A stretch of 64,000 bases of DNA from an uncultured bacterium (GCA_903882905.1 CAIRYW010000019.1:1406-65405); one strand, 5' to 3'. Numbered from the stretch's first letter, positions 21,743 through 57,809 are shown. Made by a program: numbers and translations. Notes: generated by a model from the sequence alone, not told the origin.

Positions 21743-21922
21743 CAAGAAAAAAACGCCTAAAGGCGTTTTTTTTTGTGGCTGAGAAAGGTGTGGGACACCT
21801 TTCGCAAGGGCGATGATGGGCGCAACGATGTTTTGTCAGCAGACAAAACAGTGAGCTGGGATAGCAAAATTTCCGAGCGACGGCGAAGAAATATTTGTGA
21901 TCATCACCCTTCAGCCGCGCAA
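21743..21922 (+). mobile_element. tRNA-associated mini-element E1: terminator + ~150-bp element ending AAATATTTGTGATC, then a 24-bp direct repeat of the tRNA-Asp T-loop-to-3' end with a second terminator
   Basis: gatcatcacccttcagccgcgcaa at 21722-21745 repeated at 21899-21922; interior motifs gttttgtcagcagacaaaac and agcgacggc shared with E2/E3. Confidence 0.55.
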
Positions 21923-22029
21923 TAAAAATCCCCGAAAGGGGATTTTTTCGTGGTCAATAAAAGCATAAGTAACGAAATAGATAAACCTACGTCTTTTGTG
22001 TTGTCTAAATCTGGTATAATTTTCTACAT

Positions 22030-23067
22030 ATGAAAAACTCTCAAAAAGGATTTATTGGTAAATTAGTTCTAATTATTATCGCAATCCTAATTATAGGTGG
22101 TTTATTTTTATACTATCAAAATAATAATCAATCAAAAGTAAATAATAATGTGGTCGATAATTTTTTATCGAAATGTGGTTTTAAAGTAACTTCAATTACT
22201 CCAAATGAAAAAGTAAATTTTCCTTTAATTGTGAAAGGTGTGATCGATAATTCAAATGCAAAAACTCTTGGGTGCTCTTGGCAAATGTTTGAAGGTGAAG
22301 CTGGTGTAGCGCAATTATATTTCAATAATAATCAAAGTTGGAATCCGATTGGTGTCGGTGTACCAATAAATGTTGCTGATTGGATGACTACGTCGACTAC
22401 CTTTTCCGTATTACTTAACTTTAATAATGACGGAATTGGGTTGTCTACAGGAACTCTAATGAAAATTACTTTCACAGAAGAAAATCCATCAGGACAAGGA
22501 ATAACTGATTCAATAGATCTTCCTATTATATTCGGTAACATTTCCTCTGTCTCAGAAAATGCAGTCTATGAAAATAAGCTAAACGGTTTTTCTTTTTCCT
22601 ATCCAAGTAAATTTAGTCTCGCAGATAATGAAACTATTTTAAATCAACCTTGGGAATACAATACAACAGATACTGGAAATTTAATTGCAAGAGTTGTGAT
22701 CCCAAGAACTATTCAGCCGAAAACAAATTTTGGTGAAGCTTATTTCGATGTCGGTGTGAGCACGAGTACAGATTCAATAAAAAATTGTCTTATATCTTCA
22801 GGTGTTAATACAACAGATGTATCTAGTATAAGTATAAATGACCAGAGTTTTGAAGTTTTTCATTACAACGACGCAGGAGCTGGAAATTTTTATGATGTAA
22901 CAAGTTATCATACAGTCAAGAATGGAAAATGTTTTGTGCTGGAATCTTTTGTTCATTCGTCAAATATAGGGAATTATTCACCGGACCAAGGAATAAAAGA
23001 ATTCGATAAAATTTTAGTAAATAATATTTTGAAAAATATAGTTGAATCATTCCAGTTTTTAAATTGA
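22030..23067 (+). CDS. Hypothetical membrane-anchored secreted protein
   Basis: N-terminal TM (KLVLIIIAILIIGGLFLY), Asn/Ser-rich extracellular region; no recognisable domain. Confidence 0.5.
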   Translation: MKNSQKGFIGKLVLIIIAILIIGGLFLYYQNNNQSKVNNNVVDNFLSKCGFKVTSITPNEKVNFPLIVKGVIDNSNAKTLGCSWQMFEGEAGVAQLYFNNNQSWNPIGVGVPINVADWMTTSTTFSVLLNFNNDGIGLSTGTLMKITFTEENPSGQGITDSIDLPIIFGNISSVSENAVYENKLNGFSFSYPSKFSLADNETILNQPWEYNTTDTGNLIARVVIPRTIQPKTNFGEAYFDVGVSTSTDSIKNCLISSGVNTTDVSSISINDQSFEVFHYNDAGAGNFYDVTSYHTVKNGKCFVLESFVHSSNIGNYSPDQGIKEFDKILVNNILKNIVESFQFLN

Positions 23068-23082
23068 TTTAAATAAAAATAT

Positions 23083-23502
23083 ATGGAAGAAAAAGAATTT
23101 AGAGTTGGTGTCGGCGTGATGATTTTTAAAGAAAATAAGATTCTACTTGGCAAGAGAAAGGGAAGTCATGGGTCAGGAGAATTTTCTTTCCCAGGAGGAA
23201 AAATGGAATACAAAGAATCTTTCAAAGATTGTGTTTTACGAGAAATTAAGGAAGAGTGTGGAGTAGAAATCGATAATATTGAATTTTTGATTGTCGCAAA
23301 TATAAAACAATATTTACCAAAACATCATGTCCTTGTGGGCTTTAGAGCGACATGGAAATCGAGTGAGCCTGCAGTATTGGAGCCAGAAAAATGTGAAGGC
23401 TGGGGTTGGTACGACTTAGATAAACTACCTGAACCACTTTTTGAAGCATCAAAAATAATGATTGATGCTTATAAAGATAAAAGATCTTTCCTAGATAGCT
23501 AA
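23083..23502 (+). CDS. NUDIX hydrolase
   Basis: Nudix box GGKMEYKESFKDCVLREIKEECG. Confidence 0.8.
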   Translation: MEEKEFRVGVGVMIFKENKILLGKRKGSHGSGEFSFPGGKMEYKESFKDCVLREIKEECGVEIDNIEFLIVANIKQYLPKHHVLVGFRATWKSSEPAVLEPEKCEGWGWYDLDKLPEPLFEASKIMIDAYKDKRSFLDS

Positions 23503-24011
23503 ATAATCTTTCCTTTTAATATTTTCATTACGTCTTTTCTAACTGCCGGGATTTTTTTGTTTGCATCTATAAAAATTGCATCTTTAAACTTTGGCGCTGA
23601 ATAGCGTAAGCAATTTTTTTTGATATCTCTTATTGTTCTACATTTTTTTCTACTTCTAGCTCTTTTAATACTATTTTCTAATTTAGTTTTTAAAAAAAGA
23701 TGAATATAATTTATTTTTCCTATTTTTATTTTTAATTCCTTTATTAATACTACTGTCCATGAACTACTTATTACAACATTTATATTTTTTGCAATATAGG
23801 AATTAATCATGTCAATCATCACACGTCTTGTGAGATTGTGATAAGAAATATTTTTCTGAAATGAATTAATAAAATATTTTATTATATCCATATCCAAAAA
23901 AACTGTTTTATTTGGAAGTTTTTTCTTTAGGTAACTAGCAAGAGTTGTTTTACCGGCACCTATAGGCCCATTTATTAGTAAAACAAAAGGTTTTACTTTA
24001 TGAGTTTTCAT
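23499..24011 (-). CDS. P-loop NTPase / small kinase-like protein (AAA_33-like)
   Basis: Walker A LLINGPIGAGKTTLAS, DMD Walker B-like; 170 aa. Confidence 0.6.
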   Translation of the reverse strand: MKTHKVKPFVLLINGPIGAGKTTLASYLKKKLPNKTVFLDMDIIKYFINSFQKNISYHNLTRRVMIDMINSYIAKNINVVISSSWTVVLIKELKIKIGKINYIHLFLKTKLENSIKRARSRKKCRTIRDIKKNCLRYSAPKFKDAIFIDANKKIPAVRKDVMKILKGKII

Positions 24012-24084
24012 ATCTTCATTATATCACACTTTATAATAAAGAGCAATTAGCTAATAATAAGATAGTCTGTAGAATTATAAAACT

Positions 24085-24780
24085 ATGAGCAAGACTTTTT
24101 GGGAAAAAGAATATAAAGATCCAAGACATTTAGCGATGTCAGATGAGCCTGCAGAAGACTTAATTCATTTTGCTAAGTGGACAGTTAGGAATGCAGAATG
24201 GAATCCATTTCCAAAAGATGGCTTTACACTTGATATTGGTTGTGGAAATGGAAGGAATATTATAAATCTTTGTGAAGAATACAATATGCATGGATTAGGT
24301 ATAGATATTTCGTCTACTGCAATTGAACAAGCTACAAACAAGACAAAAACAAAAAATTTAAAAATTAATTACGTAATAATGGAGGTAAAGGATCGGCTAC
24401 CAATCGAAGATGCAACTTGTGACGTCGTTTTAGATATGATGACTTCACATTTTTTGAATGAAGCAGATAGAAAATCTTTGGCGTTAGAGATTGCAAGAGT
24501 TACAAAGCCCTATGGTTGGGTAATGTTTAAAACTTTTATTATGGATGGAGATAGTCATGCGAAAAGATTGATTAAAGAATTTCCAGCCGGAGAAGAGGGA
24601 AGTTATATTCATCCAAAAATAAAGGTTGCTGAACATGTTTTTACTGAACAAGAAATTTATGATTTATTTTCTCCGAATTTTAAAATATTTAAGATGTTGA
24701 AAAGTTATAAGCATGTTCTTGATGGCAAACCACACAAGAGGAGAACAGTTTCTGTTTATCTAGAAAGAAAGAGAGATTAA
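24085..24780 (+). CDS. Class I SAM-dependent methyltransferase
   Basis: Motif I LDIGCGNGRN, acidic post-I residue, motif II VVLDM. Confidence 0.7.
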   Translation: MSKTFWEKEYKDPRHLAMSDEPAEDLIHFAKWTVRNAEWNPFPKDGFTLDIGCGNGRNIINLCEEYNMHGLGIDISSTAIEQATNKTKTKNLKINYVIMEVKDRLPIEDATCDVVLDMMTSHFLNEADRKSLALEIARVTKPYGWVMFKTFIMDGDSHAKRLIKEFPAGEEGSYIHPKIKVAEHVFTEQEIYDLFSPNFKIFKMLKSYKHVLDGKPHKRRTVSVYLERKRD

Positions 24781-24796
24781 TAATTAATAAAAAAAT

Positions 24797-25228
24797 ATGC
24801 AATCAAAAGATTTAACAAAAGAAGCCCCAAGAAGTCCTTATGAATTAATTAATGGTTTTACTATCTTAGCAAGGACAATAGATAAGTGCAGAGCTGTTAT
24901 TGCTGAAACAAATGGAGAATACCACTTTGATTGTCCTTTGGATAAAGCTTTATTTGGTTTTAAAGGAATCGATGCAAACGAGTTTAAGGATTTTGTTGCA
25001 TCAGGTAGTAGTGATGAAGAAATCGGAGAGTGGGTTTTTGAACATGGAACTCAAAAAACAGTTGATGAAATAAAAACTTGGAGTAAACATTTTCATTCTG
25101 ATTTCTCTTACTCAACAGATCCAAATAAAAGCACTTGGTTTAAAGGTGAATGCGAAAGACTTGGACTTGATCCAATGAAAACAACCCTTTTTGATTATCT
25201 AGAAGTAGACGATAAGGCAAGTTTTTAA
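24797..25228 (+). CDS. Conserved hypothetical protein (DUF-type, 143 aa)
   Basis: Intact ORF after the methyltransferase; no clear catalytic motif. Confidence 0.45.
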   Translation: MQSKDLTKEAPRSPYELINGFTILARTIDKCRAVIAETNGEYHFDCPLDKALFGFKGIDANEFKDFVASGSSDEEIGEWVFEHGTQKTVDEIKTWSKHFHSDFSYSTDPNKSTWFKGECERLGLDPMKTTLFDYLEVDDKASF

Positions 25229-25285
25229 AATACTTTTTTTAAATTGAAAATACTGTCCGATTATAATAGTATGTGCTGACAACTT

Positions 25286-25552
25286 GCCGTTGTAGCTCAG
25301 TTGGTAGAGCACGTCATTGGTTAGTTAAATAGCCCATCATTTTGGAAACGAAATGATGAATCCCGAATTACGGTTAAAGTCCACGCAAGTGGGTAAGACC
25401 GTGGCGAGAAATCGCCCGAACGACTGACAAGGGACGCTAAACCGAAAAGGTATGTGTAAGATACAGTCTAATCCTTTTATAAGTCATTGCGGCGAAATAA
25501 AGGTAGGAAATGAATGACGAGGTCTCCGGTTCAATCCCGGACAACGGCTCCA
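25286..25552 (+). tRNA. tRNA-Thr(GGT) interrupted by a group I-like intron (exon 1 25286-25321, exon 2 25513-25552, encoded CCA)
   Basis: Acceptor GCCGTTG/CAACGGC, anticodon stem CGTCA/TGACG, loop TTGGT|AA, variable AGGTC, T-arm TCCGG-TTCAATC-CCGGA. Confidence 0.7.
25322..25512 (+). ncRNA. Group I-like intron (191 nt) in the tRNA-Thr(GGT) anticodon loop after position 36
   Basis: Insertion after U, terminal G 25512, P7-like GACUG / CAGUC pairing elements; no ORF. Confidence 0.5.
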
Positions 25553-25555
25553 TTT

Positions 25556-25587
25556 AAAAACCACCAGCAAATTTGCTGGTGGTTTTT
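25556..25587 (+). terminator. Bidirectional rho-independent terminator
   Basis: aaaaaccaccagcaaatttgctggtggttttt. Confidence 0.7.
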
Positions 25588-25613
25588 AATTTCCATAGAA
25601 TCAGATATCACAT

Positions 25614-25838
25614 TTAGGCAGATATTTTTGAAGATGAAACGCACGCTTTGCAAGTTTTTTTGTGAATTACAACTTCAACGATTGCAGCAACACCGACAAG
25701 AATGTAGACAATATTTGCTAAAGTACTTCCTGCTCCAAAAGCCATTGCGACTAAGTCCCATCCTCCAATTCCTACCAAAAGCCAGTTAAGGCCTCCAATA
25801 ATAAGAAGGATGAAAGAAATCATGTGAATAGTTTTCAT
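25614..25838 (-). CDS. DUF378 family small membrane protein
   Basis: GGLNWLLVGI...STLANIVYILVG signature, two TM helices. Confidence 0.65.
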   Translation of the reverse strand: MKTIHMISFILLIIGGLNWLLVGIGGWDLVAMAFGAGSTLANIVYILVGVAAIVEVVIHKKTCKACVSSSKISA

Positions 25839-26033
25839 AGAGTTTTGAAATTAAATTGTTAATTTCGACCTCGAGTCTGACACTTAAATTATAACACTTT
25901 ATTTAGAGTTATAGACACCTAAGAGAATAATGTTTGAGCCTTTGCAACAATTAATAAGGTTTGATGACTTTCATCTTGATTTAGAGACCATATTGAAATG
26001 TAATGGTACATTATCAAATTCGTCATATAGGTT

Positions 26034-26477
26034 GTGAGGAACATACCAAAAAAATATTTAATTGTGATTGGGGTTTTTGTTGTTGTTGTCTTGGTGTCAC
26101 TTTTTATTATATTTAATCCATTCAATCATCTCGATAGCGCCACACTTGCCGCAAGAAGAGGAGCTACCGAACTCTTATCAGTCACCATCATGACTGATTT
26201 AGTTAGTTACTATAATGTTGAGAGTAATTTTTTGGACTTCTCAAAAAGTCTTGCAGTAAAACAAAAAATTGCGGGGGAGATTTTAGATCTAAAAACAAAA
26301 TACGGAGGAGACTATGATTATAAAATTTTTGAAATATCAGAAAGGGGATTGTCTATTAAGACAGTCGAGAAAACTACGGGGACTTATTATTGTATCGATA
26401 ACGCAACCTATGTTCCTGTTGAAATTAAAAGCGATCAATTTACTGTAAATTCAGATTGTACTGGAAAAAGATTGTGA
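26034..26477 (+). CDS. Hypothetical membrane-anchored protein
   Basis: N-terminal TM, no known domain. Confidence 0.45.
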   Translation: MRNIPKKYLIVIGVFVVVVLVSLFIIFNPFNHLDSATLAARRGATELLSVTIMTDLVSYYNVESNFLDFSKSLAVKQKIAGEILDLKTKYGGDYDYKIFEISERGLSIKTVEKTTGTYYCIDNATYVPVEIKSDQFTVNSDCTGKRL

Positions 26478-26532
26478 TTTTTTTAAATTAAGTAATTGAT
26501 TTATTCGGTGCTATGTAATATCTTTTCTTAGT

Positions 26533-26608
26533 GCCGATGTAGCTCAGTTGGTAGAGCAGGCGCTTCGTAAGCGTCAGGTCGACAGTTCGATTCTGTCCAT
26601 CGGCTCCA
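26533..26608 (+). tRNA. tRNA-Thr(CGT)
   Basis: GCCGATGTAGCTCAGTTGGTAGAGCAGGCGCTTCGTAAGCGTCAGGTCGACAGTTCGATTCTGTCCATCGGCTCCA, canonical cloverleaf, encoded CCA. Confidence 0.9.
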
Positions 26609-26676
26609 TAAATATAGAATATCTATATTTAGAGAATCGAAAAGCGCAGATATATTTTTCTGGTAATATTGTATTA

Positions 26677-27549
26677 ATGAAAGAAGAAAAAGAGAAAAGA
26701 ATATTAGAAATAGAACAACTTATGACAGGCTCGGATTTTTGGGCTGATAAAGAAAAAGCTCAACTTTTGATTAAAGAATTACAGGAGTTAAAGACTACTG
26801 TTGAGGGCGGAAGTCCCTTTGATAGCGGAGATGCTATTTTGACGATTTTTTCTGGAGCAGGGGGAATTGATTCTGAAGATTTTGCCTCAATGCTTCTTTC
26901 GATGTACCAAAAATATGTTGCAAAGAGAGGATGGGGAACGTACTTGGTTCATGAAAATAAAAATGATCATGGTGGAATTCGCAATACTACTTTTGAAATA
27001 AAAGGAAAGAACGCGTATGGAATTTTAAAAAATGAATCAGGTGTTCATCGTCTTGTGCGACTTTCTCCGTTTAATTCAAAAAGTTTGAGACATACCTCAT
27101 TTGCAATGGTTGAAATAATTCCAAAGTTTGAAAAAAAAATGAATATAGAGGTACCAGAATCTGAACTTAAAATTGAATTTTCAAAATCTAGTGGTCCAGG
27201 AGGACAAAATGTAAACAAAAGAGAAACAGCTGTGAGGATTGTTCATGTTCCAACAAAAATTTCGGTGCATGTAGATTCTCAGAGGAGTCAGGGACAAAAT
27301 AAAGAAAAAGCACTTGAGATTTTAAAAGGCAAACTCTACACGATTTTTGAGGCAGAAAGAATTGCTCGAGAAAAGGGAATGCAAATATCTAAGACCACAG
27401 ATGTGGAGTGGGGAAATCAGATTCGCTCTTATGTTTTGCATCCATATAAGATGGTTAAGGACCATAGAACGAATGTTGAGACCGCAAATACAGAAGCTGT
27501 TTTAAATGGAGATATCGAAAAATTCTTAGAAGCCGAAAAATTTCTGTGA
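26677..27549 (+). CDS. prfB: Peptide chain release factor 2 (short N-terminal domain, no +1 frameshift site)
   Basis: SPF tripeptide (RLSPFNSK), GGQ (SGPGGQNVNK). The ORF-track start 26548 runs through the tRNA-Thr gene and is spurious; first ATG is 26677. Confidence 0.85.
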   Translation: MKEEKEKRILEIEQLMTGSDFWADKEKAQLLIKELQELKTTVEGGSPFDSGDAILTIFSGAGGIDSEDFASMLLSMYQKYVAKRGWGTYLVHENKNDHGGIRNTTFEIKGKNAYGILKNESGVHRLVRLSPFNSKSLRHTSFAMVEIIPKFEKKMNIEVPESELKIEFSKSSGPGGQNVNKRETAVRIVHVPTKISVHVDSQRSQGQNKEKALEILKGKLYTIFEAERIAREKGMQISKTTDVEWGNQIRSYVLHPYKMVKDHRTNVETANTEAVLNGDIEKFLEAEKFL

Positions 27550-27561
27550 AGAAATTTTGAG

Positions 27562-27665
27562 GCCCAGCACATAGTTTTTCTGATTTCGTGCCATGTTGGT
27601 CTAATTTTGATATAATTAATACACATTGAGTTTTAATTTTCTACCCAGAAAAACTATGTGCTGGG
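27562..27665 (+). repeat. CCCAGCAC-core IR element copy F (21-bp arms GCCCAGCACATAGTTTTTCTG / CAGAAAAACTATGTGCTGGGC)
   Basis: Perfect arms separated by 62 bp between prfB and ftsE. Confidence 0.6.
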
Positions 27666-27705
27666 CATTAATTTCTAAAACTCATTTCATTCGTTAAGAA
27701 ATTAT

Positions 27706-28386
27706 ATGATCTACTTTGATAAAGTTTCAAAAAAATATTCTGATACATCTACTGCTCTTGAAGAGATAACAATTTCTGTGGAACCAAAAGAGTTTGTTTC
27801 TATTGTGGGCCACTCTGGTGCAGGAAAAACGACGCTTCTTAAAATGATTTTAGGTGAAGAATCACCGTCACAGGGAAGTGTCTATTTTGAATCAGTAAAC
27901 ATTCATAAATTAGGGAAGCACGATATAAACAAATATCGCAGAAGAATTGGTACTGTTTTTCAAGATTTCAGACTTTTACCCCACTTAACAGTTTTTGAAA
28001 ATATAGCTTTTGCTATGGAAGCCTCAGGAAGAAGTGAAGAAGATATTGCTTCTGATGTTCCTCATGTTCTTGAATTGGTAAATCTTTCAGACAAGATCAT
28101 GTCTTTTCCAAGACAACTTTCTGGTGGAGAAAAACAAAGAGTTGCTATTGCGCGTGCGATTGTAAATCAACCAGATATTATTATTGCTGACGAGCCGACT
28201 GGAAACCTAGATCCAATTTCAAGTAGAGAAATTATTGATATCCTTCAAAAAATAAATGAATTAGGAACAGTAGTCATTCTTGCAACTCATAATAAAGAAA
28301 TTGTTGATTCACTTGGAAAGAGAGTCATTACTATGGAAAAAGGAAAAATTATTAGAGACAACAAGAAAGGTAAATTTGTGATGTAA
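27706..28386 (+). CDS. ftsE: Cell division ABC ATPase FtsE
   Basis: Walker A GHSGAGKTT, LSGGEKQRVAIARA signature, paired with ftsX. Confidence 0.85.
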   Translation: MIYFDKVSKKYSDTSTALEEITISVEPKEFVSIVGHSGAGKTTLLKMILGEESPSQGSVYFESVNIHKLGKHDINKYRRRIGTVFQDFRLLPHLTVFENIAFAMEASGRSEEDIASDVPHVLELVNLSDKIMSFPRQLSGGEKQRVAIARAIVNQPDIIIADEPTGNLDPISSREIIDILQKINELGTVVILATHNKEIVDSLGKRVITMEKGKIIRDNKKGKFVM

Positions 28387-28390
28387 AAAT

Positions 28391-29311
28391 ATGTTTTGGA
28401 TTAATACAAAAAGAATAGTCAGACTTGGTTTTATAAATTTTGCTAGAAATATTTCTGTTTCTATTGCAGCTGTTTTAATTACAACTGTTGCTTTATTGGT
28501 TATAGCTTCACTTATGTTTTCAAGAGCTGTTCTTGATTCAACTTTGTCTCAAATACAAAATGCCGTTGATATAAGAGTTTATCTTTCAAATTCTGCAAAC
28601 AATGATGAAATTGCATCGCTCCAAAAAAGAATAGAAGCCTTGCCTGAAGTTGCCCAAGTTTCATTATCGACAAATGATCAAGAGTTGGCTGATTTTACAA
28701 GCAGACATCAAAATGATCAGCTTACCCTTCAAGCTATAGAAGAGATTGGTGCAAATCCTTTTGGATCAGCGTTTAGTATCAAAGCAAAAGATATTTCTCA
28801 ATATTCAGGTATCGCATCATTTTTAGATGCAGAACAAAATCAGACTCAAAGTAGTATTATCGACCGTGTAAACTATTCAAGAAATAAACAAGCAATCGAC
28901 GTTATAAATAAAATGATTGCCTCATCAAAAAAACTTGGAATTACAGGAGTAATATTTTTCTCATTGATTTCACTTTTGATAACCTTCAACACAATTAGCC
29001 TTGCAATATATATGGCAAGAGAAGAGATATCTGTGATGAGACTTGTCGGCGCAAGTACGCGTTATATTCGAGGGCCATTTATAGTGAGTGGTTTGATTTA
29101 TGGTCTGTGTGCATCAATACTTTCACTAATAATTATCCTTCCTATTACTTATTGGGTGGGGCCAAAAATCTATGATTTAGGAACCGGAATAAACCTATTT
29201 AACTTTTATCTATCAAATATAGTTATGTTTATTGGTGTTATCACTGCTTCAGGTCTTGCTATCGGAGCTTTGTCTAGCTATTTGGCCGTAAGAAAGTATT
29301 TAAAAGTCTAA
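28391..29311 (+). CDS. ftsX: Cell division permease-like protein FtsX
   Basis: 4 TM with large first extracellular loop, follows ftsE. Confidence 0.8.
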   Translation: MFWINTKRIVRLGFINFARNISVSIAAVLITTVALLVIASLMFSRAVLDSTLSQIQNAVDIRVYLSNSANNDEIASLQKRIEALPEVAQVSLSTNDQELADFTSRHQNDQLTLQAIEEIGANPFGSAFSIKAKDISQYSGIASFLDAEQNQTQSSIIDRVNYSRNKQAIDVINKMIASSKKLGITGVIFFSLISLLITFNTISLAIYMAREEISVMRLVGASTRYIRGPFIVSGLIYGLCASILSLIIILPITYWVGPKIYDLGTGINLFNFYLSNIVMFIGVITASGLAIGALSSYLAVRKYLKV

Positions 29312-29332
29312 AAAACCAATTAGGTCATATCA

Positions 29333-29364
29333 AATATGCTCTGTAAATAGAGCATATTTTTTTA
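29333..29364 (+). terminator. Rho-independent terminator after ftsX
   Basis: aatatgctctgtaaatagagcatattttttt. Confidence 0.65.
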
Positions 29365-29385
29365 TTTTCGATACAATAGAAAGCA

Positions 29386-31020: not shown

Positions 31021-31141
31021 TTCGGAGGACTTGTAGGTAATTCCTCCTGTGGAGGTTTTTCCTCTAAGTCTTTTTATTTTGATTTTTTGGTTAAAAAAAG
31101 CTAAAGTAATTGAGCTTTTAGTATTTCTATAAGCAATAAAT

Positions 31142-31296
31142 TGCGGGTTCGTCTAATGGTAGGACGTTCACTCTGAGGAGCTATTGGGGTGAGCTTGGGA
31201 TAAGGGACCCAAGTGCAAGACCGGAATCCGCGTAGGCGGATGAGGAGGGGTCGCGAAATTTTTCAGCAGAAAAATATTTGTGACCGAGTCCCTGAC
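31142..31296 (+). pseudogene. Degenerate tRNA-Gln-like copy: 5' part (31142-31190) + 95-bp insertion (31191-31285) in the T-loop + T-loop/T-stem fragment GAGTCCCTGAC; broken anticodon stem, no 3' acceptor strand
   Basis: First 24 nt identical to the downstream tRNA-Gln; the insertion ends AAATATTTGTGACC and contains tttcagcagaaaaa (mini-element E2). Confidence 0.55.
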
Positions 31297-31306
31297 AAAA
31301 AAATAT

Positions 31307-31380
31307 TGCGGGTTCGTCTAATGGTAGGACATCTCCCTCTGGAGGAGGCTATTGGGGTTCGAGTCCCTGACCCGCAGCCA
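31307..31380 (+). tRNA. tRNA-Gln(CTG)
   Basis: U1-A72 pair, discriminator G, anticodon loop CTCTGGA, encoded CCA. Confidence 0.8.
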
Positions 31381-31455
31381 GCGCTTTAAAATTTTGATTA
31401 TTCTACTTCCGGTTAACTAAGTTAACCAAAGGTTTGAAATTGGAGTTTATAAAAA

Positions 31456-46454: not shown

Positions 46455-46460
46455 ATAAGA

Positions 46461-47936: not shown

Positions 47937-47979
47937 AAGTCAGTTTGTAGGAAAAAGTTTCAGTGAACAGAAAATCAAC

Positions 47980-48016
47980 AAAGCCCGCAAGACGAAGTCT
48001 TGCGGGCTTTGTTTTG
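47980..48016 (+). terminator. Rho-independent terminator after the helicase
   Basis: aaagcccgcaagacgaagtcttgcgggctttgtttt. Confidence 0.8.
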
Positions 48017-48096
48017 ACTTAGAAATTGAAATCACTATTTATGATACAATTAGTTTGTTAGTAGGAGTTTTAAACTAAAATAATCAAAAAAATATT

Positions 48097-48609: not shown

Positions 48610-48620
48610 TATAAGAATTA

Positions 48621-48653
48621 AAACCGGCGGGCTTCGAGCCCGCCGGTTTTTTT
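48621..48653 (+). terminator. Rho-independent terminator
   Basis: aaaccggcgggcttcgagcccgccggttttttt. Confidence 0.8.
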
Positions 48654-48680
48654 ATTAAGATAGTGTTAAAATATTATCAC

Positions 48681-50342: not shown

Positions 50343-50481
50343 TGAGCAAGGGTGACCCTTGCTCAATTTGCCTAGCCATGAAAAATGGTCTTGATAAGGA
50401 AGGCTTGGAGGAAAAACCTCCGCGGGAGGAATTACCTCCAAGCCCATTTGATTTTCCTTCTTTTCTGTATATAATGTTTAA

Positions 50482-51126
50482 ATGGTAACAATTACAGTAA
50501 AAAAGAGAGATTCTAAAGAAAGCCTTTCAAGACTTAGGTCAAATGGCAGTATCCCTGCAGTATTTTATGGTCCAAAGCAGGATTCTACACCTATTTCTTT
50601 GGACTATATTCAATTTAATAAAGTTTTGAGCGAAAACGGTGAATCATCAGTTATTTCTCTGATTGGAGATGCTGGTGAACACGACGCTCTCATTCATGAT
50701 ATTTCAAGAGAACCTGTCACAGGTAAAATTGTTCACGTTGACCTTTATGTTATGGAAAAAGGTAAGAAAGTTAAGGTTAATGTTCCTGTTGAATACGTTG
50801 GAGTTTCTGCTGCTGTTAAAGACATGGGAGCAATTCTCGTTAAAGTTATGCATGAAATTGAAGTTGAGGCTATGCCAAAAGATCTTCCTCATAATCTTGA
50901 AGTAGATATTTCAAAGATTGTTGACCTGGATTCACATGTTTCTGCAGGAGATATTAAACTACCCCATGGTGTTCTATTAGTTACTGGAGCAGAAGAAATT
51001 GTCGCTTTAGCTAAGATGGCTAAAGAAGAAGTTGAGGAAACAACCCCAATCGACCTTTCATCGATTGAAGTAGAGAAGAAAGGAAAGGAAGAAACCGAGG
51101 AAGGGGTAGAGGAAGCAAAGAAATAA
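50482..51126 (+). CDS. rplY: Ribosomal protein bL25 (Ctc/general stress protein form)
   Basis: N-terminal RSNGSIPAVFYG region, acidic C-terminal extension. Confidence 0.8.
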   Translation: MVTITVKKRDSKESLSRLRSNGSIPAVFYGPKQDSTPISLDYIQFNKVLSENGESSVISLIGDAGEHDALIHDISREPVTGKIVHVDLYVMEKGKKVKVNVPVEYVGVSAAVKDMGAILVKVMHEIEVEAMPKDLPHNLEVDISKIVDLDSHVSAGDIKLPHGVLLVTGAEEIVALAKMAKEEVEETTPIDLSSIEVEKKGKEETEEGVEEAKK

Positions 51127-51166
51127 TTTTCTTTGCTTTTTAAATTTGTTTTTTACTTAATTCTAA

Positions 51167-52519
51167 ATGATAAAAAATTTTAAAGGTTCTTTCGCAATTT
51201 TTTTTATCCTAATTTTACTTATAGGAGGTTTTTTGTTTTTATATAAAAAAAGTGAAGCTCAGATTGTAACTGATCCAGCCCAAAGAGCTGTTTTGCAGTC
51301 TCAACTTAATGAAATAGAAGCCGAGATAGCACAACAACAAGCTATTCTCGCCCAAAAACAAACAGAAGGATCTTCTATCTCACGAGACATTGCAATTCTT
51401 GATGCAAAAATCAAAGCATCACAATTAAAAATCAAAGCATACGATATTCAAATCAATCAACTTGGACAAGATATAACAGTTAAAACAAAAACTATTCAGA
51501 CTTTGGATGGTCAAATTTCTTCAGGCCAAGATTCTCTTGGACAAATTTTAAGACAAACTAAAGCACTTGATGATGTATCTCTTCCAGAGGTTTTGCTTTC
51601 GGGTCAAGATATTTCTTCTTTTTTTGTTGATTTAGATTCTTTTGATGCTGTTAAAACTTCACTATCAGATACTTTCAATAATCTTCGAGATGCAAAACAG
51701 GAAAACCAAAATCAGAAAGCAGATTTGAGTAAAAAACAAAATGCTACAATAGATACAAAGACCAATGTTCAAAAAGAACAAGCTCTTATCAAACAAAATC
51801 AAGCCGAAAAACAAAGACTTCTTTCTTTAAACAAGACAGAGCAGGCAGGATACCAGGCGGTGATTGCATCAAAATCTGCTCAAGCAGCAAAAATCCGTGC
51901 AGCACTTTTTTCCTTGGCTAACACTGCAGCAATTCCATTCGGGACAGCTCTTGAGTATGCTCAGGCTGTTCAAAAAATTACAAGCGTTGATCCAGCTTTT
52001 CTATTGGCTATTGTTACTCAAGAATCAAATCTTGGATCAAATGTTGGAGCTTGCTATTTAACTAACACGACAACTGGTGCAGGAGTGAATGTAACGAGTG
52101 GAAGAGTTTGGTCAAATCTTATGAAGCCGTCAAGAGATGTCGCTCCTTTTCTTGCAATAACTAGTGCTATTGGAAGAGATCCAATGAAGACAAAAGTTTC
52201 TTGTCCAATTGCTGGTGCTGGAGGATACGGAGGGGCAATGGGTCCAGCGCAATTTATTCCTTCAACTTGGGTTTTATTTGAGGACAGAATTAAATCTGGA
52301 TTGGGTGTGCAAAATACTGATCCATGGAATCCTGAACAAGCCTTTTTAGCCTCAGCACTTTATTTGTCTGATCTTGGAGCTGTAAATGGAAGTTATACTG
52401 GAGAAATAAAAGCCGCATGTAAATATTATGGTTCAGGCGGATCAACTTGTACTTACGGAAAACAAGTGATGGCGAAAGTGGCACAAATACAGGCTAATAT
52501 AAATATACTTAATAATTAG
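51167..52519 (+). CDS. Coiled-coil protein with C-terminal lytic transglycosylase (SLT/lysozyme-like) domain
   Basis: N-terminal TM, Gln-rich coiled coil, C-terminal VTQESNLGS...GAMGPAQFIPSTW SLT motif. Confidence 0.65.
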   Translation: MIKNFKGSFAIFFILILLIGGFLFLYKKSEAQIVTDPAQRAVLQSQLNEIEAEIAQQQAILAQKQTEGSSISRDIAILDAKIKASQLKIKAYDIQINQLGQDITVKTKTIQTLDGQISSGQDSLGQILRQTKALDDVSLPEVLLSGQDISSFFVDLDSFDAVKTSLSDTFNNLRDAKQENQNQKADLSKKQNATIDTKTNVQKEQALIKQNQAEKQRLLSLNKTEQAGYQAVIASKSAQAAKIRAALFSLANTAAIPFGTALEYAQAVQKITSVDPAFLLAIVTQESNLGSNVGACYLTNTTTGAGVNVTSGRVWSNLMKPSRDVAPFLAITSAIGRDPMKTKVSCPIAGAGGYGGAMGPAQFIPSTWVLFEDRIKSGLGVQNTDPWNPEQAFLASALYLSDLGAVNGSYTGEIKAACKYYGSGGSTCTYGKQVMAKVAQIQANINILNN

Positions 52520-52579
52520 TTTAGATTCTCTGCCAAAAAGTTGCCTTTTTGAAGGTTTTTTTGTAGTATGTACGAACAT

Positions 52580-52849
52580 ATGAAAAAAGATATACATCCA
52601 GCAAATTACAGAAAAGTAGCTTTTGAAGATACCTCAAATAAGGAGATTTTTCTTATTTCCTCAACTGTTGCTACAAAAGAAACTACAAAAGTAGATGGTA
52701 AAGAATATCCACTATACAAAGTTGAAATTTCAAGTGCCTCACATCCTTTTTATACAGGAAACGACAATGTCGTTGACTCAGCAGGAAGAGTGGAAAGATT
52801 CAAAGCAAGAGCAACTAAAACTGGAGCTAAGAAAGAAAGTAAAAAATAA
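52580..52849 (+). CDS. rpmE: Ribosomal protein bL31 (type B, non-zinc form)
   Basis: MKKDIHPANYRKVAF...HPFYTG; the ORF-track start at 52568 adds 4 aa. Confidence 0.8.
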   Translation: MKKDIHPANYRKVAFEDTSNKEIFLISSTVATKETTKVDGKEYPLYKVEISSASHPFYTGNDNVVDSAGRVERFKARATKTGAKKESKK

Positions 52850-52860
52850 CTTCTCCTTTT

Positions 52861-52890
52861 AAAACCCAAGGCATACTTGGGTTTTTATTT
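52861..52890 (+). terminator. Rho-independent terminator after rpmE
   Basis: aaaacccaaggcatacttgggttttt. Confidence 0.75.
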
Positions 52891-52891
52891 T

Positions 52892-53899
52892 ATGGAACCT
52901 TCAAATTTCGATTTATCAAAATATAAAGAAAATAACAAAACTCGCTTTTTAGCAGAGGATTTTGAGCGTCTTTTGAAAGAAGAAATTGAAATCAAAGATA
53001 TCATTGCAAAAGAGCCAAGTATGAAAGAACTTTCAGAGGAAGAACTTGAAACAATTGAAAAACAAAAAAAAGAAATTGTCATACAAATGGAATCTATTTT
53101 GAAAGAGGAAGAAGTAGAAGAAGAATTTCCAAATGAAATAGTTCTTGAAGTGCGCGCTGGAGCTGGAGGCGAAGAAGCTTCACTTTTTGCAGAATCACTT
53201 GCAAAGATGTATGAGGGATATGCAAACATCGAAGGATTTGAATGGAGACCAGTAGATGAATCACAAAGTCAGATTGGAGGTTTTAAAGAAGCATCATTTG
53301 AGGTTAGAGGTAGAGATGTCTATAAAAAACTTAGGTATGAGACGGGTGTGCACAGAGTCCAAAGAATTCCAGCTACAGAAAAATCTGGAAGAGTACACAC
53401 ATCAACTGCTTCTGTTGCAATTTTGCCCATTAGAAAGAAAACAAAATTAGAAATTAAAGAAAGTGATCTTTTGATTGAGACTTCAAGATCAGGAGGAAAA
53501 GGGGGTCAAAATGTGAACAAAGTGGAAACAGCAGTGAGAATAGTTCACAAGCCAACTGGTATCGAAGTTAGAAGTACTTCACAGCGAAGTCAGCTGAAAA
53601 ATAAAGAAATGGCAATGTCTATTCTTTTTGCAAAGCTTGAAGCTCTTAAAGAAGAAACTGAAAACAAAAAATTTGCAAAAGACAGAAAAGCACAAATTGG
53701 GACAGGAGATCGTTCGGAAAAAATCCGAACTTATAATTATCTCCAGGATAGAATTACAGACCATAGAATAAAAGAATCTTGGCATAATTTACCTCAAATA
53801 ATGTTTGGTAACATAAAACCGATCATAGATGCTATTGCCGAGAAAGTAGAAAGTGGAAATGTTTCAGAAAACTCGTCCGGTGAGGATTTAGAGGATTAA
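52892..53899 (+). CDS. prfA: Peptide chain release factor 1
   Basis: PAT tripeptide ([10 protein letters not shown]), GGQ ([11 protein letters not shown]). ATG 52892 chosen because the ORF-track TTG 52877 lies in the terminator stem. Confidence 0.85.
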
Positions 53900-53905
53900 T
53901 TTTTT

Positions 53906-53950
53906 AAAGGACCGACCTTAAATCTTCAAAAAGGTCGGTCCTTTTGTTTT
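53906..53950 (+). terminator. Rho-independent terminator after prfA
   Basis: aaaggaccgacc..ggtcggtccttttgttttt. Confidence 0.75.
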
Positions 53951-54010
53951 TAAAAAACCTCCCCTGGGGTATAATTAAATTACTATTAATTAATCGGTTA
54001 ATTATAAACA

Positions 54011-55516
54011 ATGAAAAAATATCTTTCTCTTCTCGGTGTTGGTTTGCTTTCTTTAGCAGTTTTTTCTCCAACGTTTGCTCAAAGTACAAGTACATCCTCA
54101 ACTGATTTAAACGTAACTACTCAAGCTTTAATAAAAGTATTAACCCAACTTCTTCAACAACTTGAATTGCAGTTGCAAACTTTGTTGGCAGAGCGGGGGA
54201 ATAATACTAATATCAATATGTCTGGTGGTAATTGCTCTTCTGGGCAAACGTGGAGTGGTTTAAATGGTGGTTGTATATCTCAAACACAAAATCAATCCTC
54301 ATCAATCACAGTTACTTCACCAAATGACGGAGACAGCTTAGTTATTGGTCAGAGTTATCAAATTAAGTGGATTCCTAATTCCACAAAAGTAAATATATTC
54401 TTAAACACATACGATCAAAACGGAAATCAGATCGGAAACGGACAACTTCAATGGATTGCTCAGGCAATAGATAATACTGGAATTTATAACTGGACACCGT
54501 CAACATCTGCCTTGACTCTCAGTACTGCATATAAATATAAAATAAGAATCACAAAGGCAAATGATTTGTCTTATGGTGTAAGTGATATGGGAGAATCTGC
54601 AGGGTTCTTTACTCTCAGAAATAGTTCAACACAAAATCAACCTTTCACAATTACTTTTCCAACACAGGGAGCAAGTCTTCAGGCTGGGCAGACTTATAAC
54701 GTAAGTTGGACGGGTTCTGATACAAATGTTAATAGCTATGCTGTGTATTTAAGTGGAGGAAAGCTTGGATCAAATGGTAGTAGTTTTATTGGTACAGCAT
54801 ATCCTCGCGGTGCTGGAAATGTTGGAACATTTTCTTGGGCAATTCCTGCTGACTTAACTTCAGCTTCAAATTACCAAATTCAATTTAGTGGAGCAGGTGC
54901 TACGGGTGGAAATAGTGGGACATTTAGTATTTCTGGTTCAACACAAAATCAACCTTCAATAACGATCAATTCACCGGGATCAGGTAAAATGTATAATCAA
55001 GGTGATACTTTAAACATTTCTTGGATAGCAAATGGTGTTAGTGGTGTTGGCTTAGGTCTAGACCATACCGATGGAACTTTCGCATCAATTATTGCTGTAG
55101 GTCTTCCTACTTCAGGAAATTATTCTTGGCAAATACCATCTAACTTTCCAACAGGTTCTTATGTAATTGTTGGTTCAGTTAATAATAATGGTAATCTAAT
55201 TTACAGTAATGGCCCTACTATTTCTATTGGTTCAGCGCAAAATCAAACAGTTTATCCGCCAAATATAGAAAGTGTTGGGTCGTCAGCCAATCCAGCAAAT
55301 TCATTTTATCCAGGTGATAATGTAAAGATTGTTGGAAGTAATTTTCCTCAAAATCCAACTATAATGATAGGTAATGCGTATGTTCTAGGACAGACAAATT
55401 CAAGTGGAATGAATATAAATTTTATAGCCCCATCACTTTCAGCAGGAACTTACAGTTTAAGTATTGCAGCAAAAGGTGGAGGTAATACTGTTCAAGTCAC
55501 AGTTTTATCTAGATAG
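54011..55516 (+). CDS. Secreted repeat protein (about five ~75-aa Ser/Thr/Asn/Gly-rich Ig-like repeats); adhesin or surface-layer candidate
   Basis: Signal peptide, recurring ..Y.I.W..S..VNI.L.. repeat units. Confidence 0.55.
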   Translation: MKKYLSLLGVGLLSLAVFSPTFAQSTSTSSTDLNVTTQALIKVLTQLLQQLELQLQTLLAERGNNTNINMSGGNCSSGQTWSGLNGGCISQTQNQSSSITVTSPNDGDSLVIGQSYQIKWIPNSTKVNIFLNTYDQNGNQIGNGQLQWIAQAIDNTGIYNWTPSTSALTLSTAYKYKIRITKANDLSYGVSDMGESAGFFTLRNSSTQNQPFTITFPTQGASLQAGQTYNVSWTGSDTNVNSYAVYLSGGKLGSNGSSFIGTAYPRGAGNVGTFSWAIPADLTSASNYQIQFSGAGATGGNSGTFSISGSTQNQPSITINSPGSGKMYNQGDTLNISWIANGVSGVGLGLDHTDGTFASIIAVGLPTSGNYSWQIPSNFPTGSYVIVGSVNNNGNLIYSNGPTISIGSAQNQTVYPPNIESVGSSANPANSFYPGDNVKIVGSNFPQNPTIMIGNAYVLGQTNSSGMNINFIAPSLSAGTYSLSIAAKGGGNTVQVTVLSR

Positions 55517-55725
55517 TGTTATAGAAATAGTCATAAAACATAAGGAGGCATCCTAACAGAGGATGGTCTCTTTATGTAGAAAGTTGCAAAAGGCCTAATA
55601 AGCTGATAATATAGCCCTCACATACGTGTCCCGTTAGAAATCAAACGGGGGAGGAAAAGACGTTAAATATATATAGATATCAACATATTTTATTAAAAAA
55701 TTATAGAAAATAAATTCTAACTGGG

Positions 55726-56445
55726 ATGGCAAAAACAGACAAAGAAATACCAAAAACAATCCAAGAAATGTTCGACGCAGGGGTGCATTTTGGCCTAATT
55801 AAGAGCCGAAGAGATCCTTCAACAAAGTCTTATATTTTTGGACAAAAAGGAAGTATGGAGATTTTTGATCTCGAAAAGACTAGTGGAATGCTAGAAAAAG
55901 CATTGGAACAAGTTAGCAAACTCGGAACAGAAAAGAAAACAATTCTTTTTGTCTCAAGTAAGAATGAATCAAAATCTTTAGTAAAATCTGCGGCTGAAAG
56001 ACTAAGTATGCCTTTTATTGCTGGACGTTGGATTGGAGGACTTCTTACTAACTTTAACGAAATAAAAAAGCGTTCAAGTAGACTTGTTGATTTAGAATCA
56101 AAAAAAGAAAAAGGAGAACTTATAAAATATACAAAAAAAGAAAGATTGCTTCTTGATAGAGAAATGGCAAACTTGAATGAACTTTTTGGAGGCATAAGAA
56201 CTCTTACAAAAATTCCAGATGCAATTTTTGTTGTTGATTCAAGAAAAGAATCAATTGCAGTTTTGGAAGCAAAAGGAATGAAGGTTCCAGTGATTGCACT
56301 TGCTTCAAGTGATTGCAATCTTAAAGAAGTTACTTTTCCAATTCCAGGGAATGATGCTTCAAGATCAAGTATTGAATATATTTTGAAGAGAGTAACTGAT
56401 GCATATCAGAGTGCGCCTGTTGCAGCCCCAGCGCCCACAGTTTAA
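55726..56445 (+). CDS. rpsB: Ribosomal protein uS2
   Basis: MFDAGVHFG, long structured upstream leader. Confidence 0.85.
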   Translation: MAKTDKEIPKTIQEMFDAGVHFGLIKSRRDPSTKSYIFGQKGSMEIFDLEKTSGMLEKALEQVSKLGTEKKTILFVSSKNESKSLVKSAAERLSMPFIAGRWIGGLLTNFNEIKKRSSRLVDLESKKEKGELIKYTKKERLLLDREMANLNELFGGIRTLTKIPDAIFVVDSRKESIAVLEAKGMKVPVIALASSDCNLKEVTFPIPGNDASRSSIEYILKRVTDAYQSAPVAAPAPTV

Positions 56446-56478
56446 TTAAATTTAAAAATTAATTTTGTTCATTTAACT

Positions 56479-57069
56479 ATGATTACTACAGAACAAGTAA
56501 AAGAACTTCGTGATAGAACAGGAATCTCTATTATGCAATGCAAAAAAGCCCTTGAGGATGCAGGAGGTGATGCAGAAAAGGCATTAGTACTACTACAGAA
56601 AAAAGGAGCAGAAGTCGCAGATAAAAAATCAGATAGAAGCCTAGGGGCAGGTGTTGTTGTGTCATATATTCACAATACAGGCACTGTAGGTACATTAATT
56701 GAACTTTGGTGCGAAACAGATTTCGTGGCTAAAAATGAAGAGTTTAAGGCCCTTGCAAAGGATATCGCTATGCACATTGCCGCTACAAATCCCGCATATC
56801 TTTCTGTAGAGGATATTCCAGAAGCTGACAGAGCAACTGCTAAAGAAGTGTTTGCAAAGGAAGTCGAAGGAAAGCCAGAAGCAATGAAACAACAAATTCT
56901 TGATGGAAAAATTGCTGCTTATTTCAAAGACAAAGTTCTTTTAGAACAGGAATATATAAAGGATCCATCACTTACAATTTCCACACTGCTAAAAAATGCT
57001 ATTCAGAAGTTTGGTGAAAAGACTGTCATTGGAAAATTCGTAAGATTTTCTACAGTAGCAAAGTTCTAA
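56479..57069 (+). CDS. tsf: Elongation factor Ts (short form)
   Basis: ITTEQVKELRDRTGISIMQCKKALEDAGGDAEKA UBA-like N-terminus. Confidence 0.85.
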   Translation: MITTEQVKELRDRTGISIMQCKKALEDAGGDAEKALVLLQKKGAEVADKKSDRSLGAGVVVSYIHNTGTVGTLIELWCETDFVAKNEEFKALAKDIAMHIAATNPAYLSVEDIPEADRATAKEVFAKEVEGKPEAMKQQILDGKIAAYFKDKVLLEQEYIKDPSLTISTLLKNAIQKFGEKTVIGKFVRFSTVAKF

Positions 57070-57081
57070 TTTATTTCAACT

Positions 57082-57462
57082 ATGTTTGCAACATCTATTA
57101 CAGTTTTTTTGGTCTCATTTATTGGAGCTATTTTTCTTGTAATAAATAGAGCAAGATTTAGTGACGGAAGAGTTGCTTATGTTAGTTTTCCAAAAGAATG
57201 GGATAAACTCCTTTCAGGGTTTTATCATGCTTCAAAAGTTCTTTTTACTGAATTACCAAAACATGTTGCCATCAATGTTTATCATTTTTTTGTCATTACA
57301 TTTGTTGATGCATCAAAGAAGACAAAACTCTTGATTTATCCAAAGATTTCACATATTGTAGAGACAGTTAAAGGAACGAATTTGCCGGAACAGAAGAAGC
57401 CGGCATCAGAGTTTTTGAAAGCGATCGTGAAGGAAGAAGTAGATAGTGAAAAAACAATATAA
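57082..57462 (+). CDS. Hypothetical membrane-associated protein
   Basis: 126-aa ORF immediately before tRNA-Thr. Confidence 0.4.
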   Translation: MFATSITVFLVSFIGAIFLVINRARFSDGRVAYVSFPKEWDKLLSGFYHASKVLFTELPKHVAINVYHFFVITFVDASKKTKLLIYPKISHIVETVKGTNLPEQKKPASEFLKAIVKEEVDSEKTI

Positions 57463-57464
57463 AC

Positions 57465-57540
57465 GCCGCCTTAGCTCAGTTGGTAGAGCGCCACTTTTGT
57501 AAAGTGGATGTCCTCAGTTCAAATCTGAGAGGCGGCTCCA
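57465..57540 (+). tRNA. tRNA-Thr(TGT)
   Basis: GCCGCCTTAGCTCAGTTGGTAGAGCGCCACTTTTGTAAAGTGGATGTCCTCAGTTCAAATCTGAGAGGCGGCTCCA, encoded CCA. Confidence 0.9.
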
Positions 57541-57809
57541 GAAAAAAGTCCCTTATGGGGACTTTTTTATTTGCCACCTCAGAACTCAATGGGTATTGAG
57601 TTCATTCAGATTTGAAAGGCGCAGCTAGGTTTTTCAGCAGAAAAACCAGCGAGTCGGGTGAGAAGCGAAGACTTGAAGCTTCGCAAGACCTTTTCAGATT
57701 TTTTATGAGATTTGCGAAATAAAAATCGAAAAGGTGTACTGAAACTGTAAGTTTCGAGAAATTTTGAAAGCGACGGCTTTCAAAATATTCGTGACCAAAT
57801 CTGAGAGGC
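57541..57809 (+). mobile_element. tRNA-associated mini-element E3: terminator + ~225-bp element ending AAATATTCGTGACC, then a 14-bp direct repeat of the tRNA-Thr(TGT) T-loop/3' region (caaatctgagaggc)
   Basis: Repeat at 57520-57533 and 57796-57809; interior tttttcagcagaaaaa and agcgacggc are shared with E1/E2. Confidence 0.55.

Follow-up and report, generated by a model that had tools for sequence, protein, structure and literature searches.

Why should short, related sequences beside three different tRNA genes each end in a copy of the neighboring tRNA? The question arises in a 64,000-nucleotide (nt) stretch of DNA from an uncultured bacterium (GCA_903882905.1, CAIRYW010000019.1:1406-65405), hereafter the window. 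It carries three related elements on the tRNA strand, at tRNA-Asp, tRNA-Gln, and tRNA-Thr(TGT), each of which terminates in AAATATTYGTGAY and continues into a copy of the 3′ part of the adjacent tRNA, beginning at C56. We find that the elements are a conserved folded RNA module selected on the tRNA strand. They belong to an apparently undescribed family that occurs throughout the Patescibacteria (candidate phyla radiation) next to genes for tRNA and transfer-messenger RNA (tmRNA), probably within their transcription units. The reading we favor, at a little short of even chances, is that of a new non-coding element, gained and lost at the RNA level, that colonizes the loops and ends of stable-RNA genes and leaves an intact gene behind.

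Three copies of one element

The motif AAATATTYGTGAYC is present exactly three times in the window, on the plus strand only (21889-21902, 31272-31285, and 57783-57796). The two-block pattern AAATTT..AAATATTYGTGAYC has three matches, compared with none in 100 shuffled sequences, and a covariance model built from other genomes (R1) also recovers exactly three copies (Table 1). With no shuffle matches and covariance-model E values of 1e-10 to 1e-21, a chance or simple-repeat origin is ruled out.

A preliminary description of the window, made from the sequence alone, had reported three related elements with a common end, each fused to a copy of its host tRNA, and had assigned a single family to different tRNA species. 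Motif search and covariance model bear out both statements, the second also in other genomes. The tRNA copy does begin in the T loop, as that description held, but not after C56: the final C of the motif is C56 itself and the copy starts at 56, or at T55 in some other genomes. The pyrimidine preceding C56 pairs within the element (alignment columns 61-106). The repeat recognized at the tRNA-Asp junction is real; since G53-A54-T55 equals the element end GTGAT, however, it takes in G53-T55 and is 24 nt long (21722-21745 = 21899-21922). As first delimited, the Asp and Thr copies (21743-21898 and 57541-57796) took in a hairpin and T run directly 3′ of the tRNA; the elements themselves begin at ~21775 and ~57573.

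A conserved RNA fold on the tRNA strand

Aligned with one another, the three window copies show hairpins with compensatory changes. The structure was tested on an alignment (A2) of 51 members, with 35 base pairs tested. In the resulting fold, a closing helix, P1, is followed by a 3-bp helix, P2, around a hairpin, HP2, and by a long basal helix, HP3, with a bulged A (strands GGUCGCGAAAUUU... and ...AAAU(A)UUYGUGAC). P2, HP2, and HP3, with purine-rich linkers between them, form a core of ~95 nt.

Paired cells make up 90.7% of the alignment, compared with 72.9% in shuffles (none of 500 as high) and 38-49% when partners are slid. Both sides change in 22 of the 35 pairs, and the middle pair of P2 is variously GC, CG, AU, and UA. 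Columns 64-103 form a G·U pair in all 51 sequences, which confines the fold to the tRNA strand. The invariance of AAATTT and of AAATATTYGTGA is ascertained, being fixed by the search pattern, which left P1, P2, HP2, and the upper part of HP3 free. Minimum free energy (MFE) folds of the window copies also give an outer helix, a further hairpin (HP1), P1, and the core (z values in Table 1).

Two assignments within the fold were rejected. The CAGCAG-type motif, thought in the preliminary description to be shared, is not homologous between copies: in the Gln element, TTTTTCAGCAGAAAAA forms the HP3 tip, and its Asp and Thr counterpart is HP2. The internal loop of P2/HP2 has a geometry unsuitable for a kink-turn.

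Sensitive scans of Rfam 15 with two window copies and the best family member found no known family for the elements. The only intron-type hit, weak and at chance level even with E values up to 10, was one of 17 bits to a plastid D1 fragment, and no group II family was matched. A literature search that included the literal motifs found no published description, although unpublished or non-indexed work may exist.

A clamp made of both strands of the tRNA end

In the commonest arrangement, the tRNA is followed by a short trailer, often with a terminator-like hairpin, and then by the antisense of the acceptor 3′ strand (positions 66-75), HP1, the antisense of positions 56-65, three linker bases, the core ending in GUGAC, and a sense tRNA copy from C56 to about N73 or C74. 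Such units measure 100-170 nt. The sense copy is usually 18-21 nt long and at times extends into the trailer (31 nt in locus L153, at least 44 nt in L134). Together, the flanks form a clamp, whose 3′ strand is the sense copy of the adjacent tRNA segment and whose 5′ strand is its Watson-Crick antisense copy, often interrupted by HP1 at the T-stem/acceptor junction. The HP1 loop is CUGC in many lineages and UGGGA or UGGGU in the window. The tRNA segment and its sense copy are direct repeats (X1 and X2) of 12-24 nt in the window and 18-44 nt elsewhere, which end at the tRNA 3′ end. In each copy the two flanks pair with each other: the anchored helix averages 4.8 bp between the 5′ and 3′ flanks of the same element and 2.0 bp with swapped partners.

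The antisense strand might have been a relic of the tRNA's own 5′ half. This was ruled out, as the strand is a Watson-Crick complement that includes positions 73-75. Pairing is perfect over positions 73-75 in L146 and 73-74 in L198; in L107 the strand spans positions 73-74 and places an A opposite T69, where the tRNA itself has a G·U pair. The antisense is closer to X1 than to X2 in nine cases and closer to X2 in four, as expected under neutral decay. As a check for a mature-tRNA template, we counted CC after N73, which is only slightly more frequent in X2 copies than in the genes (7 against 3 of 21).

Two other arrangements occur. In a second class, a U tract after HP1 (TTTTGTGG) provides the 5′ strand of P1, and the 3′ strand, CCACAAA, resembles the extreme tRNA 3′ end plus trailer. 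In a third, the core lies inside a degenerate tRNA copy immediately 5′ of an intact gene: in the T loop (the window Gln copy, L110, and L120), in the anticodon loop (L145), near position 26 (L164), or in the D arm (L173 and L098). With the tRNA segment present in duplicate, the real gene remains intact.

The T loop of the window tRNA-Asp is itself unusual, reading ATCATCA in both repeats (21720-21732 and 21897-21909), with G53-A54-T55 identical to the element end; its ortholog in the relative L216 has a canonical loop, TTCAAGT. This is suggestive of gene conversion, with the element side as donor and the functional tRNA-Asp as recipient.

Table 1. Positions and parts of the three elements in the window and of their host tRNAs.
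Feature	Position	Strand	Evidence or detail
tRNA-Asp(GTC) with 217-nt group I intron (21488-21704, position 35/36)	21454..21745	+	ARAGORN with intron option; Rfam RF00028, 53 bits
Repeat copy X1, 3′ part of tRNA-Asp, GATCATCACCCTTCAGCCGCGCAA	21722-21745	+	sequence
Terminator-like hairpin and T run directly 3′ of tRNA-Asp (A7-CGCC-TAAA-GGCG-T9)	21747..21774	+	read from sequence
Asp element, whole 5′ clamp	21775..21818	+	MFE fold, z = -5.6; covariance-model alignment
Asp clamp, antisense of acceptor 3′ strand, GTGGCTGA	21775-21782	+	
Asp clamp, HP1, loop UGGGA	21783-21803	+	
Asp clamp, antisense of T loop and T stem, GGGCGATG, then J1 ATG	21808-21815	+	
Asp conserved core: P2, HP2 (loop AGCA), GAGCTGGGA, basal HP3 with bulged A, end GTGAT	21819..21901	+	R1 match 21805-21913, 83.4 bits; structure counts
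Repeat copy X2 of tRNA-Asp 3′ part, 24 nt identical to X1	21899..21922	+	
Terminator 3′ of Asp X2	21923-21950	+	orthologous to terminator of L216
Degenerate 5′ part (~positions 1-54) of second tRNA-Gln copy, 5′ of intact gene	31142..31190	+	comparison with 31307-31380
Gln element, in T loop of degenerate tRNA-Gln copy	31191..31284	+	R1 match 31209-31296, 44.5 bits; fold z = -4.0
Gln element, order of parts: GAG, HP1 (loop with GGGA), TGCAAG, P2, short HP2, GAGGAGGGG, HP3 ending GTGAC			
tRNA-Gln fragment C56-C67, CGAGTCCCTGAC	31285..31296	+	
Intact tRNA-Gln(CTG)	31307-31380	+	3′ of Gln fragment
tRNA-Thr(TGT)	57465-57540	+	
Terminator-like hairpin and T run after tRNA-Thr(TGT)	57541-57572	+	
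Thr element	57573..57795	+	R1 matches 57604-57695 (34.9 bits) and 57704-57807 (42.4 bits), ~90-nt domain between; fold z = -6.6
Thr element, acceptor-like strand GCCACCTCAG			5′ side
Thr element, HP1, loop UGGGU	57582-57603		5′ side
Thr element, antisense of T arm, TCAGATTTG	57606-57614		5′ side
Thr element, core 5′ half up to GAGTCGGGT	to 57659		
Thr element, lineage-specific inserted domain	~57660-57752	+	
Thr element, HP3 end GTGAC	to 57795		
tRNA-Thr fragment C56-C69, CAAATCTGAGAGGC	57796..57809	+	

Distribution across genomes

The Patescibacteria make up much of bacterial diversity, and their genomes are tiny. From the Asp and Gln copies we derived a strict pattern, which was searched against bacterial and archaeal contigs with one genome per species (genome_contigs). 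It found at least 119 loci; among the matches listed, nearly all are labeled Patescibacteria, and the lineages are Nomura-, Morani-, Kaiser-, Taylor-, Yonath-, and Zambryskibacteria, Paceibacterota, and Saccharibacteria. Covariance model R1 gave 136 matches in 100 loci, including ~30 matches that the pattern had not found. The strict pattern had no match among 2.9 million viral contigs, and a BLAST search with the best family member found none in phage and plasmid collections. An initial loose pattern had 88 matches in viral contigs, all by chance in coding regions, and a pattern match in an alphaproteobacterium (L195) is also due to chance. Three short contigs (L089, L159, and L178) come from metagenome-assembled genomes (MAGs) labeled Polaromonas or Bdellovibrionales; they resemble typical Patescibacteria loci with tRNA and element and are probably mis-binned.

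The link to tRNA genes proposed as a check in the preliminary description was recovered many times. A same-strand tRNA ends within 300 nt upstream of 80 of the 127 pattern instances (63%, where ~4% would be expected), and for a further 11 the only tRNA nearby is a same-strand one just downstream; none has solely an opposite-strand tRNA. The family occupies more than 15 tRNA species plus tmRNA. Its tmRNA-linked copies (L100 1204-1967; L199 7067-7692, minus strand) lie directly 3′ of the gene and copy it from the T loop to the 3′ end. In L100, two elements follow in succession, and the antisense of the first matches the tmRNA end perfectly over 12 nt of acceptor, trailer included, and at 9 of 11 nt against the T loop. 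One seemingly orphan copy (L168) has as its neighbor an intron-containing tRNA-Asp.

Copies can be dense. In L177 (4087-7958), an element follows each of five tRNAs (Arg, Gly, Pro, Arg, and Gly) in 8 kb; one of these is canonical, and four have a variant 3′ domain (GAGCCAGTGCCCAGAC...GTCGAGGG) that the pattern does not see, so the family is broader than the pattern sample. Elements in L175 sit between tRNAs in spacers of 12-23 nt, with one unit partly duplicated in tandem, and L134 has two tandem units. Two subfamilies can be found together in one locus, and copies within a locus have lineage-specific variants in common. Some tRNAs in L213 and L214 are without an element.

A copy in L183 (3590-3760, minus strand) lies on the strand opposite to a 23S-5S operon, ~400 nt past its end, and adjoins an apparent inverted 5′ fragment of 5S rRNA (TCCTGGCGATAACCTATCCCGAACC). 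The element may be associated with 5S as well.

Turnover between related species

Comparison of related species shows that copies are gained, swapped, tandemly amplified, decayed, and lost on this time scale. The tRNA-Thr(TGT) locus is syntenic in the relatives (EF-Ts, a small open reading frame (ORF), the tRNA, and a convergent gene), with 76-80% protein identity. The window has an intact element there, which contains a lineage-specific inserted domain; L211/L212 also have an intact one (83.8 bits), with a different insertion and just 7 nt of the tRNA copy left. In L210 the element has decayed (13.9 bits). In L208 it is absent, and an acceptor-like 5′ strand, AGCCTCCTCA, is joined directly to the tRNA fragment TCTGAGAGGCT.

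The tRNA-Asp locus of L216 holds an element of another subtype, with a short HP2 and without HP1, whose clamp fits L216's own canonical T loop. The terminator behind this element (AAAAATCCCCGAAAGGGGATTTTT) is the one that the window has, and X2 plus that terminator is therefore the ancestral host flank. L216 also has an element downstream of an atypical tRNA-Met, where the window has none (20629-20700). At both the Thr and the Met loci, then, element state differs between related species, the presence/absence variation that the preliminary description had asked for. At the Gln site, gene order is not conserved among the relatives in the synteny comparison. The nearest neighbor of a core usually sits at another tRNA species, with the same anticodon in only 6 of 53 cases; a subtype tied to tRNA identity, as under pure vertical descent, is not supported.

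The atypical tRNA-Met(CAT) (20629-20700; T arm GGTGCAAGTCCGG, 53.8 bits) is divergent from the normal tRNA-Met (20458-20531, minus strand), and its L216 ortholog is inverted.

A possible module serving the host

The main rival to a colonizing element is a host-beneficial cis module of tRNA operons. The clamp and HP1 would form a structure that is tRNA-like or a long double strand, at which RNase P, RNase III, or RNase Z could enter, or which would regulate the tRNA 3′ half or act as its decoy, and the core would bind a lineage-wide protein; spread would be by duplication and gene conversion, not transposition. Much of the distribution suits this account. The core is almost identical across deep Patescibacteria lineages, and copies are always co-oriented with the tRNA, even inside tRNA operons with the narrow spacers described above. 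The fully occupied L177 locus and the variants shared by copies within a locus fit it too, as does the tRNA-like shape formed by an acceptor-like helix with HP1 branching at or beside the 65/66 junction. Moreover, covariation among the antisense strand, X1, and X2 extends even to the unusual T loop of the window tRNA-Asp.

The turnover is harder to reconcile with a host benefit, as close relatives show decay and loss at the same tRNA, with nothing visible taking the element's place, and many tRNAs have no element at all. X2 is often shortened to 7-14 nt, a terminator-like hairpin often stands between tRNA and element, and the core is also found in dead tRNA copies upstream of genes. We regard a host module as possible but doubtful.

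Comparison with known mobile elements and RNAs

The preliminary description had proposed that the junctions are attachment (att) sites of a tyrosine integrase and the elements cis-mobilizable integrative elements (CIMEs), that is, integrase-less miniature elements with a T-loop attB and a recombinase encoded elsewhere. As in such elements, direct repeats of the tRNA 3′ segment, from the T loop to the tRNA 3′ end, surround the insert (X1 and X2), the tRNA stays intact, tandem units are seen, and X2 is still joined to the ancestral host terminator. Patescibacteria do encode proteins of the Phage_integrase family (e.g., L216 6004-6900). The anatomy points elsewhere. A CIME would have two inverted recombinase arms around a 6-8 bp overlap; here the halves of the inverted repeat are split by the ~95-nt core, which shows RNA-type covariation with G·U pairs, one of them invariant, and a strand-specific fold. 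The units, at merely ~150 bp, also differ from CIMEs in their antisense target copy and in their positions, which include tRNA operon spacers and, within tRNA copies, the anticodon loop, the D loop, and the 3′ end. One family at so many tRNA species and tmRNA, common to the sampled Patescibacteria lineages and absent from viral, phage, and plasmid collections, is equally foreign to the proposal. The observation that no integrase is nearby holds: among adjacent genes, none beside any window copy encodes one. We consider this integrase model very unlikely. The fallback offered in the same description, an undescribed structure-targeted tRNA-associated repeat, is close to what we find.

A second alternative is a remnant or miniature of a known RNA mobile element, either a fragment of a group I or group II intron or a guide scaffold such as the omega-RNA of IS200/IS605 elements, with the flank as guide. 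Group I introns are common in Patescibacteria tRNAs, where they insert at position 35/36 (PMC13011429), and one lies 100 nt upstream of the Asp element. Like the tRNA introns and those in the tmRNA T loop, the elements are structured RNAs in loops of stable-RNA genes that pair with flanking gene sequence, as a P1/P10 helix or an exon-binding site would; they would be co-transcribed with the host gene, and they show a comparable pattern of invasion, decay, and loss. Unlike them, the elements have no P3-P9 core, for which ~95 nt is too small, and RF00028 matches only the tRNA-Asp intron and none of the elements. Nor do they interrupt a functional spliced gene: the interrupted tRNA copies are degenerate or truncated, to judge by their sequences. 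Because these copies are dead and an intact gene stands alongside, splicing is not indicated.

A miniature group II intron was considered on account of the bulged A 8 nt before an AY end, which recalls domain 6, a GTGYG-like 5′ end, and the position after a terminator, where group IIC introns insert. It was rejected because the GTG belongs to P1, the positions resembling domain 5 (D5) fall in HP2 and covary freely, and Patescibacteria are reported to have no group II introns (PMC13011429). The full set of domains 1-6, with a catalytic D5 hairpin and the GUGYG/AY ends, is not seen, and no group II family is matched at E = 10.

The guide scaffolds of TnpB and IscB, and their ORF-less derivatives, resemble the elements in that ~20 nt of target-derived sequence, at the element end, immediately adjoin a conserved scaffold. 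In the elements, however, this would-be guide is not free but sequestered in a helix, paired to the internal antisense in P1. Next to the copies examined there is no ORF for TnpB, IscB, or a reverse transcriptase, and no HEARO, intron, or ribozyme family of Rfam is matched even at E = 10. Descent from a known RNA element, whether intron or guide scaffold, seems to us quite improbable.

Other classes share single traits with the family. R2-type rRNA elements with a 5′ hepatitis delta virus (HDV)-like ribozyme also reside in stable-RNA genes, are co-transcribed, as the family would be, and use host flank in their fold; the family, by contrast, has no ORF or known ribozyme fold, is bacterial, and duplicates its target. 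The covariance models of self-cleaving ribozymes (hammerhead, twister, pistol, hatchet, and HDV) gave no match at E values up to 10. Signals that resemble tRNA and direct processing, such as plant mitochondrial t-elements and mascRNA-type structures, likewise place an acceptor/T-like helix near genes, where it could recruit tRNA-processing enzymes, but they have no conserved inserted core and are neither derived from nor matched to an adjacent tRNA. Miniature inverted-repeat transposable elements and repetitive extragenic palindromic sequences do not fit, as the inverted repeat of the family is target-derived and different at every tRNA, the repeat length varies, and the covariation is of RNA type. 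The family fits no Rfam family, paper, or known element class tested.

A proposed RNA-level element of stable-RNA genes

In the reading that we favor, a new RNA-level element of stable-RNA genes, the element would be co-transcribed with its tRNA, and the RNA would be its active form: a ribozyme, a guide, or a protein-binding scaffold. This active RNA would be responsible for persistence or for spread to new loops and ends of stable-RNA genes, and the direct repeats would permit precise loss, tandem amplification, and transfer by recombination.

Several observations weigh against this reading. None of the loci compared offers a pristine empty site, and no insertion polymorphism is seen between strains, the sole same-species contig being identical in spacing. 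We identified no protein acting in trans, no reverse transcriptase, and no recombinase, nor a mechanism by which the antisense copy would be made. Many invariant positions were set by the search pattern, and the lineage assignments rest on MAG taxonomy labels. Near-identical cores across deep lineages, and a copy after every tRNA at some loci, suit a host function equally well.

More speculatively, and with a probability that we would place well below even, the core could be the RNA of a Patescibacteria-specific system. This might be a ribozyme or guide-RNA mobile element that uses a templated antisense segment to recognize exposed loops and ends of tRNA or tmRNA and duplicates its target on insertion, or an antisense-guided ribonucleoprotein acting on the tRNA T-loop region, which would serve tRNA processing, modification, or quality control. 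To our knowledge, neither of these RNA-based forms has a bacterial precedent.

Some tiny Patescibacteria genomes carry the module beside most of the tRNA genes sampled here. This implies either a selfish RNA element that is very successful and copies its target as both sense and antisense, or a gap in the picture of Patescibacteria tRNA biology. If the antisense clamp is templated, it would represent a new mode of target acquisition; if the core is catalytic, a new ribozyme class. In these genomes the element accounts for orphan 3′ fragments of tRNAs, for "degenerate tRNA copies," and for odd T loops, and the covariance model is available to mask or annotate the copies.

Neighboring features of the window

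ARAGORN with default settings reports five window tRNAs and overlooks tRNA-Asp because the 217-nt group I intron interrupts the gene. The intron, inserted after U35, is also missed by the Rfam tRNA model; its position matches the Patescibacteria site reported in PMC13011429. A promoter and terminator consensus scan of the window did not flag the evident hairpins and gave no usable promoter.

Between tRNA-Met and tRNA-Asp lies a free-standing LAGLIDADG_3 ORF of 229 amino acids (20785-21474), the last 21 nt of which overlap the start of tRNA-Asp. At this position L216 has a different 229-amino acid ORF and a decayed remnant of the window ORF (L216 ~1600-1690). An ORF for a peptide-chain release factor (PCRF/RF-1 domains), called mechanically at 26548-27549, has its TTG start inside tRNA-Thr(CGT) (26533-26608); the true start is probably further downstream.

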